Shown: piece after piece, positions 1 to 6,310 of the stretch | How positions within the stretch are numbered: the stretch's first letter is position 1 | How the letters are laid out: the number at the start of each line of letters is the position of its first letter | Translations under genes and position numbers: made by a program | Origin: a virus | Taxonomy: Duplodnaviria > Heunggongvirae > Uroviricota > Caudoviricetes | IMG/VR virus record: IMGVR_UViG_2778261619_000004 | Location: 1 to 6,592 of that record | Strand: one strand, 5' to 3' | DNA: 6,592 nucleotides | The notes under the pieces: generated by a model | What the model was told of the DNA's origin: nothing | What the model saw: only the letters and a program-made list of their open reading frames with translations | Database searches by the model: none

Positions 1-1283
1 GTTACCTGAACCACAAAACGGCGATGACGTCCCGCCTGCACATCCACTGTCGCCACAAGGAAATTAACGCCATCCGGCACACTGCGGGAAGGAACTGGCT
101 CTGCCCGCTGCTCAAGCAATTCACTTTTTCGTTGCTCCATGCTGGCGCGGGGAAGATAAGGTAATCCCCAGTCGGTATTGATAACCGTCTTGAGTGTCTC
201 TTCACTTCCGGTTGTCTCGTATTCCTGTTCTGCAGTAAGCAGTTTGTAAACGAGTTGCGAGAGTGTCTGATAAGCAGCTGCCGGACCCTCCATCCAGAAT
301 GACGCAATACGTGAACGCCGGGGATCACCATAACGACTGCCATCTGCATTGATGGATTCACCATCCCGTAGCCAGACCCCACGTCCGTTCAGCTCGCGTT
401 TTTGTTCAGGCAAAATCCGTCCTGAACAGGAAGGACACTGAATATAAGCCGCCTCACTTGCCAGCACAGGATCGGCAATATCACGGAAACCAGCAACCAC
501 ATCGCCGCAGGGCTGAAAATACTCACCACAGTGTGGACATGGCCAGTACCAGCGACGGCGATCGCCACGGTTATAGAGCGACAGGATCCCCGTGGTTGGT
601 GGAGCCTCATGCGGTGAAGTCCGTCGCCATTTCACATCCTTCACATCCCTGCCGGGGGAACTCTCCACAAGCGTCATACCACTGGACATAAATGTGGTGG
701 TACGTTTTGAGGCAAGAGAGAAGGCATCCCCCTCGCCATCAATATCTTCCGGAAAACGGTCATAATCCGTCAGCGCCACGCATTTATAATCTGATGAGGA
801 CATGATATTGACTGACGGCCAGCCGATTTTCAGGTAGTTGCCAGCAAGGAATGTTCTGTCATAAACGTTGTTGTCATTTTTGTTCGGACTCAGGCGACTG
901 ACCACTTCCGGGCTGACGCGAAACGTTCTGGCGAGTCGTTTTTTGGAGTGTTCGCGGGCTTTTTCCTCCGTCATCTGAATGATCAGCATATCCGCAGGAT
1001 CGCAAATCACGTTGTAAATCACCCAGCCGTCAATCAGGCCGATAGTCTTGCCGGTTCGTGCCGGGCCAACAAATATCACTGCGTCGTATTCACGCGAGGC
1101 CAGGCAGTTCATCGGCTCAATAACATACGGTGCCACCAGCGGATCCCACGGGACTGAGTTCCCTGCCCCCATGGGCACCCGCATATACTGAGCAACGGCA
1201 TCAGCAACCCGCATTCGTCTCGGTGCGCGAAGGATATAACCTGAATCGGTTCGTGCTGCCTTTGCGGTTTCCTGATTCAGCAT
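1..1283 (-). CDS. Terminase large subunit, lambda gpA family; N-terminal 427 codons, C-terminus lies beyond window start
   Basis: Hand translation of the minus strand from ATG at 1283-1281 is open through position 3 (absent from the ORF track because no stop lies in-window). Begins MLNQETAKAARTDSGYILRAP; has Walker A-like VGPARTGKT and a Cys cluster WPCPHCGEYFQPCGD...IQCPSCSG that parallels lambda gpA (ACPHCGEEQYLKFGD...LCEHNAC, from memory). SD AGGAGGAG lies 5 nt upstream; start overlaps the upstream stop as TAATG. Confidence 0.88.
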   Translation of the reverse strand, partial: MLNQETAKAARTDSGYILRAPRRMRVADAVAQYMRVPMGAGNSVPWDPLVAPYVIEPMNCLASREYDAVIFVGPARTGKTIGLIDGWVIYNVICDPADMLIIQMTEEKAREHSKKRLARTFRVSPEVVSRLSPNKNDNNVYDRTFLAGNYLKIGWPSVNIMSSSDYKCVALTDYDRFPEDIDGEGDAFSLASKRTTTFMSSGMTLVESSPGRDVKDVKWRRTSPHEAPPTTGILSLYNRGDRRRWYWPCPHCGEYFQPCGDVVAGFRDIADPVLASEAAYIQCPSCSGRILPEQKRELNGRGVWLRDGESINADGSRYGDPRRSRIASFWMEGPAAAYQTLSQLVYKLLTAEQEYETTGSEETLKTVINTDWGLPYLPRASMEQRKSELLEQRAEPVPSRSVPDGVNFLVATVDVQAGRHRRFVVQV

Positions 1284-1774
1284 TACTCCTCCTGCTGTAA
1301 TTCCTCCTCATCATCCGCACCTGCTTCGGTCACCCGCAGGGCTATCTGATCGCGCAGATCATCAATAATGGACTGAACACGGCTCACAGCGGCAGGCTGC
1401 AGACCACAGTCACGTTCCAGAATATCCGGTAATGTCTCCAGCACCTGCACGACCGCTTTTGCCCAGATGGCAAACTCCCGTCTGACATCACTGGCCGGAA
1501 TGAGTTGTGCCGTTTCCTGTTCGAACTTAAGACGCTCACGTTCAGACTGATACCAGGCTTTGCGTTCATGTGGATCCATTTCGCCCTCAGCAACCGGCGG
1601 TGGTAACCCCATAAATTCAGTCAGAATATCGGTCAACCGGTATAGCTTGAGTTTGTCATGTCCACCAGCGGGACGAATGTTTTTCAGTCTTGCCACGACA
1701 GTCTGGCGGTGCAGACCAGATAAAGCCGCCAGTTGATTAATATTCAGCACCAGGTTTTTCAATTCATGATCCAT
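1283..1774 (-). CDS. Terminase small subunit, Nu1-like (N-terminal helix-turn-helix DNA-binding domain)
   Basis: 163-aa ORF directly upstream of and overlapping the large terminase, with strong SD GGAGGA. N-terminus LNINQLAALSGLHRQTVVARLKNIRPAGGHDKLKLY follows the lambda Nu1 pattern (HTH, then GGG, then LY; lambda VNKKQLADIFGASIRTIQNW...GGGKGNEVLY). Acidic C-terminal tail. Sits about 175 bp downstream of the predicted cosN, as in lambda. Confidence 0.8.
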   Translation of the reverse strand: MDHELKNLVLNINQLAALSGLHRQTVVARLKNIRPAGGHDKLKLYRLTDILTEFMGLPPPVAEGEMDPHERKAWYQSERERLKFEQETAQLIPASDVRREFAIWAKAVVQVLETLPDILERDCGLQPAAVSRVQSIIDDLRDQIALRVTEAGADDEEELQQEE

Positions 1775-1805
1775 ATTTCCTCCGGAGAGCTTTAAACATG
1801 CATCG

Positions 1806-1866
1806 TGCGAACAACTTTAAGAAAACGCGTTCGATGTCGAACAAAAAACACTCAATTCGACATACA
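1806..1866 (-). promoter_or_regulatory. Putative cosB: small-terminase binding repeats and A-tracts between cosN and the terminase genes
   Basis: Inverted repeat ATGTCGAA (1834-1841) / TTCGACAT (1857-1864); near-palindrome GTTCGA-TG-TCGAAC (1829-1842); CGAACAA at 1808-1814 and 1838-1844; A-tracts at 1843-1849 and 1865-1874. The position matches lambda cosB (R sites plus IHF bend). Confidence 0.35.
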
Positions 1867-1948
1867 AAAAACAAACAACCATTAATAATCAATAAGATGT
1901 AAAGATGATGGTGGCCGATAAAAATGCAAAAACTAGCCTTTTTCCGCG

Positions 1949-1960
1949 ACGCTCCCGCCC
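1949..1960 (-). other. cosN, cohesive-end nicking site of the cos packaging signal; predicted 12-nt end GGGCGGGAGCGT (phage orientation)
   Basis: Reverse complement of 1931-1990 reads CGGGTCCTCCCGGTGGGGTGGCCTGCCACG-GGGCGGGAGCGT-CGCGGAAAAAGG. This is collinear with the lambda cos region as I recall it (ACGGGTCCTTTCCGGTGATCCGACAGGTTACG-GGGCGGCGACCT-CGCGGGTTTTCGC): 16 of 21 matches across the core, plus the conserved CGGGTCCT and CCGGTG blocks on the cosQ side. It lies between the lysis cassette and Nu1-like gene, as expected. Confidence 0.6.
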
Positions 1961-2160
1961 CGTGGCAGGCCACCCCACCGGGAGGACCCGTCAGCCTGGC
2001 AGCCATGAACGAGCGTCTGATACAGAACACAGAAATAAATCAGGCATCCACTGACGTCACACAGACGGTGCATTGCGTCGACAGGAGTAATGGCGTAAGC
2101 TGAACTCTTGGCTCTCTTGTGCCACCGGCGAATCTTCAGCGGATTATCCTTGGCCGGTTT

Positions 2161-2625
2161 TTATCTGAGGCATTGCTCACGAATGTATAGCTGTGCCCCT
2201 TCCAGTTGTTTTTGCATTATTATCAGCCGCTCTCTGAGGGTGAAATAATCCCGTTCAGCGGTGTCTGCCAGTCGGGGGGCGGCTGCATTACCCACGCCGG
2301 TGGCGGCGGTGGCTTCACGTCCGGTCTGACAGACTGCTCTGATGCGCAACCGACGACGACCAGCGGCAATATCATCACGCAGAGCATCATTTTCAGCTTT
2401 TGCATCAGCTAACTCCCTTGAGTATTTTTCATCCAGTGCAGCAACATCACGCTGGCGCTGCTGCATGTCAGTAATGGTGGCGTTCGCCTGGCTGAGTTTT
2501 TCCTTCGCTTTATCGCGCTGGTCTTTGTAGGAGATGGCGTTATCACGGTAATGATTAACAGCCAATGACAGGCAGACGATGATGCAGATAACCAGAGCGG
2601 AGATAATCGCGGTGACTCTGCTCAT
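2161..2625 (-). CDS. Rz: Rz i-spanin (inner-membrane spanin subunit)
   Basis: 154 aa, [34 protein letters not shown]..., near-identical over most of its length to lambda Rz as recalled ([34 protein letters not shown]...). N-terminal TM helix then coiled-coil periplasmic domain. Start overlaps the R stop (ATGA). Confidence 0.93.
2223..2405 (-). CDS. Rz1: Rz1 o-spanin lipoprotein, embedded out of frame within Rz
   Basis: 60 aa, [24 protein letters not shown]...[28 protein letters not shown], with lipobox LVVVGC and proline-rich mature region. Near-identical to lambda Rz1 ([20 protein letters not shown]...[29 protein letters not shown], from memory). Confidence 0.9.
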
Positions 2626-3098
2626 ACCTCAATCTCTCTGACCGTTCCGCCTGCTTCTTTGAATTTTGCAATCAGGCTGTCAACTTTATGCTCGAACTGA
2701 CCATAACCAGCGCCCGGTAGTGAAGCCCAGATATTGCTGCAACGGTCAATTGCCTGACGAATATCACCGCGATCAATCATCGGTAAAGCGCCACGCTCTT
2801 TAATCTGCTGCAGTGCAACAGCGTCCTGGCTTTTCGGAGAGAAGTCTTTCAGGCCAAGCTGCTTGCGGTAGGCATCCCACCAACGGGAAAGAAGCTGGTA
2901 ACGTCCAGCTGCGGTTGATTTAAGTTGCGGGTTTAGCGTAACAAGTTTGCGAGGATGATCGGAGTAATCTGTGAACAGCTCACCACCTACAATAACGTCG
3001 TAGCCGTGATTGCGGGTTGGCTGTCGCCCGTTATCCGTTCCTTCTGACCACGCCAACATATCGAGGAAAGCTTTACGCTGGGAATTTAGTACCTGCAT
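2622..3098 (-). CDS. R: Endolysin, lambda R-type lytic transglycosylase
   Basis: 158 aa, [57 protein letters not shown]..., roughly 95% identical by eye to lambda R including the catalytic-Glu motif AWSEGT. SD AAGGAG 6 nt upstream; only 3 nt after the holin stop. Confidence 0.95.
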
Positions 3099-3101
3099 AA
3101 A

Positions 3102-3428
3102 TTACTCCTTAGAGCCACCAAACTTATTACCGATTACTCTCATTGCAGCCCCACGAATAGCATCGACACCGATCAGCCCCACCCCACCACCAATGGCAAC
3201 AGAAAGCGATTTAGGCCATCCGACATACTCAAGAGCGGATGCAAAAGTCAGCGTCAGAGCGCCACAGAGTAGAATTTCGAGTGTTTTTCGCTTCCAGCCA
3301 CCACCACCGCCAAAATAGGCAATGCGCAAACCAGCCATAACAATCGACATAATCACTGCGCCCAGCGGTGTGTCTCCACGCCACCAGCTCTGGACCAACT
3401 CCAGCCAAGTATTTGGGTTATGAGGCAT
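3102..3428 (-). CDS. Holin, class I (three TM), distant lambda S relative
   Basis: 108 aa directly upstream of R. Three hydrophobic segments (GAVIMSIVMAGLRIAYF, TLEILLCGALTLTFASAL, SLSVAIGGGVGLIGVDAI) and a charged C-terminal tail. The block LGAVIMSIVMAGLRIAYFGGGGG aligns with lambda S IGAILAFAMAYLRGRYNGG. An in-frame TAA two codons upstream of the ATG rules out a longer N-terminus; no Met-Lys-Met dual-start motif. Confidence 0.8.
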   Translation of the reverse strand: MPHNPNTWLELVQSWWRGDTPLGAVIMSIVMAGLRIAYFGGGGGWKRKTLEILLCGALTLTFASALEYVGWPKSLSVAIGGGVGLIGVDAIRGAAMRVIGNKFGGSKE

Positions 3429-3580: not shown

Positions 3581-3602
3581 AAACCCGCTCGACGGCGGGT
3601 TT
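3581..3602. terminator. Candidate intrinsic terminator hairpin (8-bp stem AAACCCGC/GCGGGTTT, 6-nt loop)
   Basis: Arms 3581-3588 and 3595-3602 are perfectly complementary. On the minus strand the stem is followed by UGUCGUUUCU (a tR'-like terminator ahead of the holin); on the plus strand only the UUU of the stem is followed by AAGCUG. The A/U-flanked stem could work in either direction. Confidence 0.4.
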
Positions 3603-3718: not shown

Positions 3719-4753
3719 ATGACTGCATCAGCGACCCCCACTAATATCACTCATAAGTTTATTGTTCACATTATGAACAAGGAACAACAGGGGTTAGCCA
3801 CCATTATTCCTTGTCCTTCAGAAAAACCTGTTCAGCAAGCATCAAAAGACCTCTCTAACGCACTTACTGAAAGGTACTCTGGGAGAGCAGGTAAAGGATA
3901 TGGGAAATTTGAAGATGACCGCGATAGTTACCCTATGGGTAATATCGTTGATGATTATTTCGTAAATAAAACACATAGTTTTTATGATACTAGTATCCGA
4001 ATGATCAATCATTTAAAAGCCAGAGCCGATGATGAATCAATGTCTACTGGTGGTTATGTAATAATTGCCCATAATGAGGTAAATGGAAATCATTATTTGA
4101 TGGTTGCAATCCTAACATCAGCAGTTGGCTCTTCAGTCCACGATTTTGAAATTCAAGAAAGTGAATATCTAGACATTGCTAAACTTCGAGTAGCGGGACG
4201 AATTGACTTAACTGGGCGCCAGAATGGCAAAGAGAGATATATTAGCTTTCTAAAGGGGCAAAATTCAGTAGCAGGTTATTTCAAAAAGTTTTTAGGTTGC
4301 AACGATATTCTAATTGCCAAACAAGAAACAACAAAATTACGGAATGCACTTTTAGAATTTGCTACTGAAAGAGGTTTTGAACCAGAGGCACGTGAAGAGT
4401 TCCTAAATAAGGCTCATGAAAAATTAAAAAATTTAAATCGTTCTGGTGAAACTTTCGACACTCAAATTTTTGCAAACGAGATATGGCCAACTGCTCCTGA
4501 GTTGTTAGTTGAAAAGTTAACCAATGACGATCTGGAGTTCTCTGATGGGTTCGTGCCTGATGGCAACGTTATACGTGGGCTTGTTAGTTTCAAAGGAAAG
4601 TCCAAACATTGGTCTCTGAAATTCGAGCGTGCGGCCTTGCATGATGGCAGCGTTCTTTATGATTCAGAAAACGATAAATTGATACTTACCGAGATTCCGG
4701 ATACGCTAAGATCAGAGATTTTATCAGAATTAGGTGAAGAGGATGAGCAGTAA
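3719..4753 (+). CDS. NdpA/YejK-like nucleoid-associated protein homolog (NA37 family), divergent, prophage-encoded
   Basis: 344-aa ORF with ATG start and AAAAGG SD. Collinear similarity to E. coli YejK recalled from memory: [24 protein letters not shown] vs [41 protein letters not shown] vs [27 protein letters not shown] vs TRYLTFLKGR; KFLGC vs DFLGA; [13 protein letters not shown] vs TIKGTPPNLRDQL. AT-rich codon usage unlike the flanking phage genes. Confidence 0.8.
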   Translation: [344 protein letters not shown]

Positions 4754-5921
4754 CAATCAGAGAACCTTCAAAGACTTAGTGACTATTTACAAGGCCGCTA
4801 CATTTGCAGGTACCCTATCTGAAGCATCACTCATTCTTTCAAACGAGGAGCTCTGTGACATCATCAACGATATCACAGAGAATCCCCATGATTTTGGCAT
4901 CACCCTTGAATCTGGCAACATTGAGTTAGGCCAAACTATAACCTTACATATAACCCCCCCCAAATTACGATTGGGGCAGCTACATTTCTCTTTTAATGAG
5001 TATTTAAAAAATCCTAAAAATAGGATAAAGGAAGCCAGTAACTTCTTTATAATCGAACTTAATTATCACAACAGGGATAAAAAGTCGCCTGCTATTATAT
5101 CCAAGTACAGAGATGTTTTGAGCTTAATTACTTTATTCAAAGATTGTTCTGCTTATTTAGATGAAACAAATTTTGAATTGGTATTCGTCGAATCCAACGT
5201 ACTAAAAATTCCAGTAAATTATTCTAGCGATGATCTTATGAATGTTAATGGAGATCTGATTCATAATTTGATCGCAAACTTTGCAGAAGATACGCATAAA
5301 GATCAAAAACTTACTATTTTAGCAAGTAGTATAAAATCATCATGTGAATCTAAAACTAAAGAAACCTCTTTTTCCTTCATGTTAAGGGATTTAGGACAAC
5401 TTTATGAAAGTTATCAAAAAGGATACAAAGTATTCGTTTCTGGTTTTTCTTACGAGAAAATACTGGATCAGTTACGAGTAGCCAAAATAGAAGAGATGGG
5501 GAAAATACATAAAGTATTCAGTGACATACAAAATCAGATATTAGGTATCCCCGTCGCAACAATTATCGTTGCGACTCAAATGAAGCAGGCTAATGGTTGG
5601 GATAGTCAAGCATTAATAAACACAGCTGTAGTGTTGGGTGCATTGTTCTTCACTATTATGATTCTATTTGTTCTATTTAATCAATGGCAAACTTTAACAG
5701 CAATAAATGATGAGTTAAATCATAAAAAACAACAAGCAGAATATAACTTCAAGGCTATTTACGAAGATATAAAGGATACATTTGATAGTTTAACCACAAG
5801 ATTGCTTGTTCAGAAAATTGTTTTTGCCTCATTAGGAATTATAGTTTTATGTGGCTTATATCTTACATTTAGATTCTACTTTTTACTTACGCCTTATGCT
5901 ATTACATATTTATTTAGCTGA
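4743..5921 (+). CDS. Membrane protein of unknown function: about 265-aa soluble N-terminal domain plus 2-3 C-terminal TM helices; candidate effector partner of the NA37 protein
   Basis: The ORF track gives 4734-5921 from GTG. An ATG at 4743, 5 nt after AGGTGA, is the more likely start; it overlaps the upstream gene stop (TAA 4751-4753) by 11 nt. Hydrophobic segments INTAVVLGALFFTIMILFVLF and IVFASLGIIVLCGLYLTF (plus FYFLLTPYAITYLF) are separated by a charged loop. I recognise no catalytic motif. Very AT-rich. Confidence 0.8.
   Translation: MSSNNQRTFKDLVTIYKAATFAGTLSEASLILSNEELCDIINDITENPHDFGITLESGNIELGQTITLHITPPKLRLGQLHFSFNEYLKNPKNRIKEASNFFIIELNYHNRDKKSPAIISKYRDVLSLITLFKDCSAYLDETNFELVFVESNVLKIPVNYSSDDLMNVNGDLIHNLIANFAEDTHKDQKLTILASSIKSSCESKTKETSFSFMLRDLGQLYESYQKGYKVFVSGFSYEKILDQLRVAKIEEMGKIHKVFSDIQNQILGIPVATIIVATQMKQANGWDSQALINTAVVLGALFFTIMILFVLFNQWQTLTAINDELNHKKQQAEYNFKAIYEDIKDTFDSLTTRLLVQKIVFASLGIIVLCGLYLTFRFYFLLTPYAITYLFS
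4954..4961 (+). repeat. Homopolymeric C8 tract inside the membrane-protein CDS (codons Thr-Pro-Pro)
   Basis: Eight consecutive C at 4954-4961 in an otherwise AT-rich gene. By hand translation, a +1 or -1 slip gives a stop within about 20 codons. Confidence 0.9.
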
Positions 5922-5945: not shown

Positions 5946-6293
5946 TTACCCATGTATTATATATATAACTGCATCAATAAATCCCAATGCAGCTTGCAAC
6001 TTTTTTCTTATAGTCCCATCAGAGCATTTTCTCTTCTTCGCAATAGTGCGTAATGAGATACCGATAACAAAGTGAGCAATTATCAGCTCATACTCTTCCG
6101 GCTTATATTTACGCAACCTAGCCACACAACTATCTATCATGATGCCTTCATCATCATCACACTGGAGACGTGACTTTTTACCGTGTGGTAAAAGTCCCTT
6201 GAAACCAGCCGCTATCGGCTGCCAGTCCACACCACTATTTTCTGCTGCAGCCCATGCTCCCCAGCGGTCCAATACTTCATACATATCACGCAT
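5946..6293 (-). CDS. Late-gene antitermination protein Q (QuuD / phage 82-like small Q family)
   Basis: 115 aa from ATG at 6293-6291 (the ORF track starts one codon earlier at TTG). MRDMYEVLDRWGAWAAAENSGVDWQPIAAGFKGL...RLQCDDDEG resembles E. coli DLP12 QuuD as recalled (MRDIQMVLERWGAWAAN...SSIAAGFKGL...RPQCCDDD). SD GGAG upstream. Positioned upstream of the lysis cassette as in lambdoid phages. Confidence 0.75.
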   Translation of the reverse strand: MRDMYEVLDRWGAWAAAENSGVDWQPIAAGFKGLLPHGKKSRLQCDDDEGIMIDSCVARLRKYKPEEYELIIAHFVIGISLRTIAKKRKCSDGTIRKKLQAALGFIDAVIYIIHG

Positions 6294-6310
6294 CAACTTT
6301 CTCCACCAAA

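Follow-up and report, generated by a model that had tools for sequence, protein, structure and literature searches.

Gene content and layout of the lysis and packaging region

The window, by which we mean the whole 6,592-nucleotide stretch analyzed here, carries on its minus strand the genes for a Q antiterminator (5946-6296), a holin (3102-3428), an endolysin (2622-3098), and Rz (2161-2625), followed by a cos region and by the genes encoding the small (terS) and large (terL) terminase subunits, the whole being inverted relative to the usual lambda map. A non-coding stretch of ~390 bp separates Rz from terS. The latter encodes a protein of 163 aa (1283..1774, minus strand) and its stop overlaps the terL start at 1283, whereas terL (3..1283, minus strand) is cut by the window edge, so that the N-terminal 427 aa of the large subunit are visible.

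Several further features accompany these genes. A 60-aa ORF (2223-2405, minus strand) lies out of frame within Rz, with an N-terminus resembling a lipoprotein signal with a lipobox Cys followed by a proline-rich part; we take this ORF to be the expected Rz1 spanin partner. Upstream of the holin gene, a strong terminator-like hairpin (AAACCCGCCGTCGAGCGGGTTT; 3581-3602, minus strand) with a T-rich tail occupies a position that matches that of lambda tR' downstream of pR'. Between the Q antiterminator and holin genes, which is the site where Stx phages carry stx, the plus strand harbors a two-gene cassette (3719-5921) of low GC content (30-40% vs ~50% elsewhere), encoding a 344-aa nucleoid-associated protein of the NA37 family and an overlapping 395-aa protein of unassigned function (phrog_5023), the C-terminal stretches of which appear hydrophobic. 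Neither gene of the cassette matched any PADLOC defense model. Since no complete Escherichia coli genome of the collection matched 80% or more of the window at a single place, we regard the window as a mosaic.

The cosQ and cosN segment in comparison with lambda and its relatives

Within the non-coding stretch, the minus strand from 1990 to 1941 reads CGGGTCCTCCCGGTGGGGTGGCCTGCCACG|GGGCGGGAGCGT|CGCGGAAA, where the bars stand at the predicted nicks (top strand between 1961 and 1960; bottom strand between 1949 and 1948). This segment comprises the packaging-termination element cosQ (GGGTCCT, 1983..1989, minus strand), identical to that of lambda; a cosQ-cosN spacer of 22 bp (1961..1982, minus strand), or about two helical turns, the length and terminal CACG of which are kept in relatives; and the cosN core (1949..1960, minus strand), predicted to give the 12-nt 5' cohesive end GGGCGGGAGCGT, from the first G of which base-pair positions are counted hereafter. 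At both nick positions the window keeps the CG pairs (CACG|...|CGCG), and the flanks of cosN are conserved in relatives.

The initial annotation had placed this segment collinear with the lambda cosQ-cosN junction, with four differences in the 12-nt end. A circularized lambda cos junction, built by joining the ends of NC_001416, read ACGGGTCCTTTCCGGTGATCCGACAGGTTACG GGGCGGCGACCT CGCGGG and showed the lambda sequence used in the initial annotation to be correct. The local alignment with this junction was collinear from ACGGGTCC through CGCGG, and the ungapped comparison of GGGCGGGAGCGT with lambda GGGCGGCGACCT confirmed the four differences, located at bp 7 (C>G), 8 (G>A), 9 (A>G), and 11 (C>G) only. 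Eight of the 12 cohesive-end positions are therefore those of lambda, bp 1-6 being all identical and the four differences falling entirely in the right half. The likeness to lambda extends to the identical cosQ, the CG-flanked nick positions, the 12 bp between them, the gpA-family large terminase, the start of terS near +190 in both (bp 187 in the window and bp 191 for lambda Nu1), and the order of the candidate elements farther right in the window (direct R, IHF-like site, inverted R, direct R). The two differ in the spacer from cosQ to the nick, which has 23 bp and ends in TACG in lambda but 22 bp ending in CACG in the window, and in cosB, which in the window is without sequence similarity to that of lambda. 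The pattern GGGTCCT-N20-25-CGGGGCGG-N6-CG had a single match in the window (1947..1989, minus strand) and matched none of 200 dinucleotide-preserving shuffles; the lambda cosN pattern with up to three mismatches allowed found no match in the window, because the site carries four.

Natural cosN variants have reportedly been surveyed by Vahanian et al. in 2017 (Virology 509:140). Lambda-like phages have been defined by 12-base 5' ends similar to those of lambda, among which differences within bp 7-12 are common (bp 9 and 12 in N15; bp 8, 9, and 11 in Gifsy-1), the 7-bp cosQ and the flanking CG pairs being highly conserved and conserved, respectively (Feiss et al., PMC4669245). It has also been reported that the cosN alleles of lambda and N15 are treated alike by the terminases of both phages and that lambda terminase tolerates right-half changes (PMC4669245). 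N15, phiD326, Gifsy-1, and mEp213/LLS (GGGCGGCGCGCT) exhibit the same pattern as the window, with variation within bp 7-12 and with cosQ and the CG pairs kept (PMC4669245, PMC12315714), although the window 12-mer has four right-half changes against two in N15 and three in Gifsy-1. The type of variation found in the window 12-mer is already documented (PMC4669245).

The initial annotation had also proposed a comparison with the cos sites of phages carrying the same terminase type, and this comparison agreed with the assignment. IMG/VR held 594 confirmed stretches coding for close relatives of the window TerS, from which 80 loci were kept. The cos motif was present in 70 of these, as the 12-mer GGGCGGGAGCGT in 61, GGGCGGGAGCGG in seven, and GGGCGGGAGCAT and GGGCGGCAGCGG in one each, with variation at bp 7, 11, or 12 only; the other 10 loci did not match the search pattern. 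When 58 distinct sequences were aligned, conservation set in abruptly at GGGTCCT, preceded by at least seven unrelated mosaic flanks. The spacer may diverge heavily among relatives (e.g., TCTGATGACCTGAGCTCTCACG) while keeping its 22-bp length and terminal CACG, and the 12-mer is almost invariant together with the right flank CGCGGAAAAAGGCTAGTTTTTG (bp 13-34; 1927..1948, minus strand). This flank, with its A5 and T5 tracts ~11 bp apart, is near-invariant in the aligned relatives and across all three cosB types described below, and may represent a contact of the large terminase or an intrinsic bend. It is also recognizable in Fels-1, mEp043, Pasteurella and Providencia phages, and cyanophage Cr-LKS3 (CGCGGAAGTCGGCAGTTTTT).

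Among deposited phages, PhiR40_1, PhiR47_1, and PhiR55_1 (PV340560, PV340566, and PV340571) have the same cos as the window, and the cosQ and cosN of mEp460-type phages, with a TerS ~86% identical to that of the window, are likewise the same. Phage cdtI and Tritos, a prophage of E. coli LF82, share the 12-mer cohesive end: Tritos equals the window from cosQ to about bp +39 except at four spacer positions (GGCC for TGGC), and cdtI shows single substitutions in the spacer and at bp +34, whereas the cosB of both diverges from that of the window from about bp 40 on. In a broader scan, the 121-bp cos region matched 2166 of 5426 complete E. coli genomes (~40%), O157:H7 among them, at up to seven places per genome.

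Other variations were observed around cosQ. In Gifsy-2, Fels-1, Citrobacter Chris1, Pasteurella Pmp14, and Providencia PSTCR8lys, AAAGGTACTCC replaces GGGTCCTCC at cosQ, which contrasts with the statement that natural cosQ variation is 'not apparent' among lambda-like phages (PMC4669245). Gifsy-2 additionally has an unusual segment, GGTGGCTTCGGGCT, between the flanks. Directly upstream of cosQ, an AATCATTATCA(T/C)TT element is common to lambda, VT1-Sakai, mEp043, and Klebsiella Kp4865-4; the window is without this element and has GCCAGGCTGAC there.

Terminase subunits and candidate cosB modules

The window TerS was assigned to the Pfam family DUF1441 (PF07278; E-value 4.6e-44, 150.3 bits vs a gathering cutoff of 35.1) and to phrog_141, 'terminase small subunit' (2.7e-77), and phages PhiR40_1, PhiR47_1, PhiR55_1, and vB_EcoS-606R10 encode a protein 100% identical to it. 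The lambda small terminase, in turn, belongs to Phage_Nu1 (PF07471) and phrog_57. DUF1441 was the only Pfam family reported for the window TerS at E ≤ 0.01, Phage_Nu1 not being among the matches, in the same run in which lambda Nu1 reached 333 bits on Phage_Nu1; no BLASTP alignment was obtained between the two proteins, and a PDB sequence search with TerS returned nothing meaningful. The claim of a non-lambda small terminase made in the initial annotation therefore holds at the family level, with remote profile similarity remaining. This similarity is seen in near full-length PHROG cross-matches (window TerS to phrog_57, 8.3e-9; Nu1 to phrog_141, 5.6e-8) and in an hhalign comparison of a 14-member DUF1441 alignment with the single Nu1 sequence, which was collinear from the helix-turn-helix region but weak (E 0.0025, probability 12%). 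Judging from these profiles, the window TerS is probably a very distant Nu1 homolog with the same architecture rather than an unrelated protein.

The large subunit belongs to the gpA family (Pfam: GpA_ATPase, 5.4e-72; GpA_nuclease, 6.2e-25), and PHROGs calls both TerS and TerL terminase subunits. Over its visible part, TerL shares only 24% identity with lambda gpA, and with the Tritos TerL it shares 80% over 404 aligned residues; the window TerS is 42% identical to that of Tritos, which is also a DUF1441 protein.

A search of IMG/VR with the exact cosN and right-flank string CACGGGGCGGGAGCGTCGCGGAAAAAGG, a pattern that spans the nick and hence returns only contigs crossing the site, retrieved at least 119 contigs, which, judged by contig names only, seem for the most part to be prophage regions extracted from isolate genomes. 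Among the matches listed, three cosB types were found downstream, each with its own TerS N-terminus: MDRELKNL... in the mEp460 type, MELLMSNVS... in the cdtI/Tritos type, and MDHELKNL... in the window type. Where no TerS was called, the locus proved to be a truncated or disrupted member of one of these types. The putative recognition helix also differs, reading HRQTAAARLQN in the mEp460 type and HRQTVVARLKN in the window. As the three cosB/TerS types share the exact cosN and flank, the nicking site is common to them and the binding region and small subunit are exchanged, in line with the modularity that the initial annotation had invoked.

By position and comparison, several candidate cosB elements can be placed on the minus strand between cosN and terS. 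A candidate R3-like TerS binding site, GCCACCATCATC, lies at bp 46-57 (1904..1915), lambda R3 being located at bp 50-65 (PMC9026076). The segment at this position is specific to each cosB type and co-varies with the TerS type; relatives carry sequences of the CATCATCATC family there, and the mEp460 type has a different sequence, TCATCACCACTAC. A candidate I1-like IHF site, CATCTTATTGATT, follows at bp 62-74 (1887..1899), with one mismatch to YAANNNNTTGATW. Taken singly, this match does not reach significance (9 found vs 8.8 expected); the mEp460 and cdtI cosB types have perfect YAANNNNTTGATW matches at the same position. At bp 98-105 (1856..1863), a candidate inverted R2-like site, ATGTCGAA, forms one arm of the inverted repeat ATGTCGAA/TTCGACAT, the sole two copies of this 8-mer in the window against 0.27 expected, and relatives have GATGTCGAA or GATGATGAT at this position. 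Repeat analysis and homologous positions point to a candidate R1-like site, TTGTTCGACATC, at bp 117-128 (1833..1844), where VT1-Sakai has TTGTTCGACATC, Fels-1 TTGTTCATCATC, and Gifsy-2 TTGTTCGACAC. Additionally, a further TTGTTCG repeat, TTGTTCGCAC, at bp 147-156 (1805..1814) lies in a block whose sequence is conserved in both the window and mEp460 types and could be a fourth R-like site or a translation or transcription signal. The order direct, IHF-like, inverted, direct is shared by VT1-Sakai and Fels-1; Gifsy-2, mEp043, CP-1639, and others likewise have the inverted and direct repeats. The R-site and IHF assignments are thus to be read as candidates derived from position and comparison. 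A hairpin at 1843..1828 was considered as a terminator and rejected, its palindrome not being kept in the mEp460 type.

Integrity of the site, DNA ends, and packaging

Taken together, the segment very probably represents the cos of a lambdoid prophage, one belonging to the mEp460/cdtI/Gifsy-like packaging lineage, with the minus-strand order cosQ, cosN, cosB, terS, terL. Many lambdoid prophages are defective, and the site could be a genuine cos that survives as a relic, in a prophage defective elsewhere whose own terminase never uses it and which would at most be cut in trans by a co-resident prophage of the same cosB specificity. The window is only 6.6 kb long, with TerL cut at residue 427; it is a mosaic, and as noted above a single E. 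coli genome may hold up to seven copies of the cos region, all of which would be compatible with such a relic. We nevertheless consider it unlikely, given that the region from cosQ through cosB to terS is essentially identical to that of PhiR40_1, a deposited phage with its host given as ECOR13, that TerS is full length and the same as in this phage, and that terL stays open over its visible part. Between cosQ and the TerS ATG, three substitutions separate the window from PhiR40_1, all of them outside cosQ/cosN, the candidate R and IHF motifs, and the other elements listed above. Because of this near-identity and the identical TerS, the packaging origin looks functional, which agrees with its description as intact-looking in the initial annotation.

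The placement of the nicks was examined against the genome termini of other phages. A megablast of the cos region against 50,697 phage records revealed two with their first base aligned to the first G of the 12-mer, namely Tritos (OV696610, linear) and cdtI (AB285204). Both begin with GGGCGGGAGCGTCGCGGAAAAAGG, and hence with GGGCGGGAGCGT, and end with ...CTGCCACG, i.e., ...CACG, which supports the reading of the segment as a lambda-type cosQ/cosN. The cdtI record, from a 2007 study and with GGGCGGGAGCGT at its position 1, is flagged circular, and the Tritos paper is silent on how the start of its record was set; a full-text literature search found GGGCGGGAGCGT, its reverse complement, and near variants in no phage paper. 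In phage LLS, the TerS of which is ~63% identical to that of the window, the first base of the record is the homologous one, and a 12-nt '5' extended single-strand cohesive site GGGCGGCGCGCT' is annotated there; its authors inferred this end with the help of M. Feiss and had to resort to PCR across cos, as their reads left the ends uncovered (PMC12315714). The yong2 record (a Hafnia phage) opens with the homologous CGCGG (bp 13) and closes with the variable segment. The mEp460_4F5 record (LR595868), opened 5 nt to the left of where the nick is predicted, reads GGGCGGGAGCGCGG and is missing 3 nt (TCG) present in the examined relatives carrying the GGGCGGGAGCGT end, a gap that looks like an assembly artifact at a physical DNA end. 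For Ayreon, the genome announcement only predicts cos packaging, from TerL phylogeny.

These termini bear on whether the overhang is the 12-mer GGGCGGGAGCGT or a shorter one, or one shifted by 1-3 nt. Cyanophage Cr-LKS3 is reported to have cohesive ends with 5' extensions and a measured overhang of 9 nt (PMC9303873); its record starts with GGGCTCGCG followed by CGCGGAAGTCGGCAGTTTTT, the latter homologous to CGCGGAAAAAGGCTAGTTTTT of the window, so that its measured left end directly precedes the homologous CGCGGAA..GGC..TTTTT flank, and its TerS is ~37% identical to that of the window. In VT1-Sakai and CP-1639, only 11 and 10 nt (GGGCGGGCGGG and GGGCGGGCGG) lie between CACG and CGCGG, with a cosQ spacer of 24 bp. 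These short segments could mean that the overhang is shorter, that the nicks are shifted, or that cos is damaged in these prophages, and on their account the overhang length appears not to be fixed across the lineage. Together with the low identity of the large terminase to gpA, such cases leave some room for differently placed nicks; we hold them to be very unlikely in the window, however, as the conserved CG pairs are exactly 12 apart here, as in lambda, the depositors of cdtI, Tritos, and LLS all set base 1 at the first G, and the first base of yong2 is the one that follows the variable segment.

Headful (pac) packaging with an incidental lambda-like motif is extremely unlikely, as no point in its support was found, the large terminase is of the GpA family, and in many relatives the motif precedes terS by a constant distance, while being absent from shuffles. 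We give as little credence to a small protein-coding gene as the cause of the conservation: there are overlapping ORFs (e.g., a plus-strand 59-aa ORF at 1924..2103) and PhiR40_1 has an annotated 'hypothetical protein' CDS spanning cos, but the conserved stretch has its boundary precisely at cosQ, the sequences upstream being unrelated, it spans three cosB types that would alter any reading frame, and most E. coli annotations have no gene there, a pattern that fits a DNA site better than a coding region.

For the cos site with a 12-bp stagger, a lambda-like course of packaging can be proposed by analogy. The DUF1441-family TerS would bind the R-like cosB repeats (~bp 45-130) via its N-terminal helix-turn-helix region, with IHF probably helping by bending the DNA at ~bp 62-74, and the resulting complex would position the gpA-family large terminase as a dimer on cosN. 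This dimer would nick the strands 12 bp apart, between the conserved CG pairs, producing the complementary overhangs 5'-GGGCGGGAGCGT and 5'-ACGCTCCCGCCC, the former carried by the left chromosome end. Packaging would then run towards terS/terL, i.e., in the direction of decreasing window coordinates, and end at the next cos, where the final nicking step would require cosQ.

The feature is an ordinary and widespread lambda-type cos site, already contained in public phage records, and it illustrates known rules of lambda-like cos sites without adding to them: a fixed cosQ and cosN left half, a free right half, and exchangeable cosB-terS modules. The near-invariance of the core (cosQ, the cosN left half, and the A/T-tract flank) across TerLs with identities down to 24%, three cosB/TerS types, and ~40% of complete E. 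coli genomes, with up to seven copies in each, raises the idea of a 'packaging commons', in which co-resident prophages and satellites would be cut at, or terminate on, each other's cos and the variable right half would act as a compatibility barcode against hybrid chromosomes. We regard this as a rather unlikely extension, for which the barcode part has a precedent in the mismatched lambda/N15 ends, which cost ~4-fold in yield (PMC4669245). For the prophage itself, the site would fix base 1 and the packaging direction, and the neighboring DUF1441 protein of 'unknown function' is identified as its small terminase. As the prophage would be a cos-type rather than a headful packager, generalized or lateral transduction of the pac type is not expected from it.
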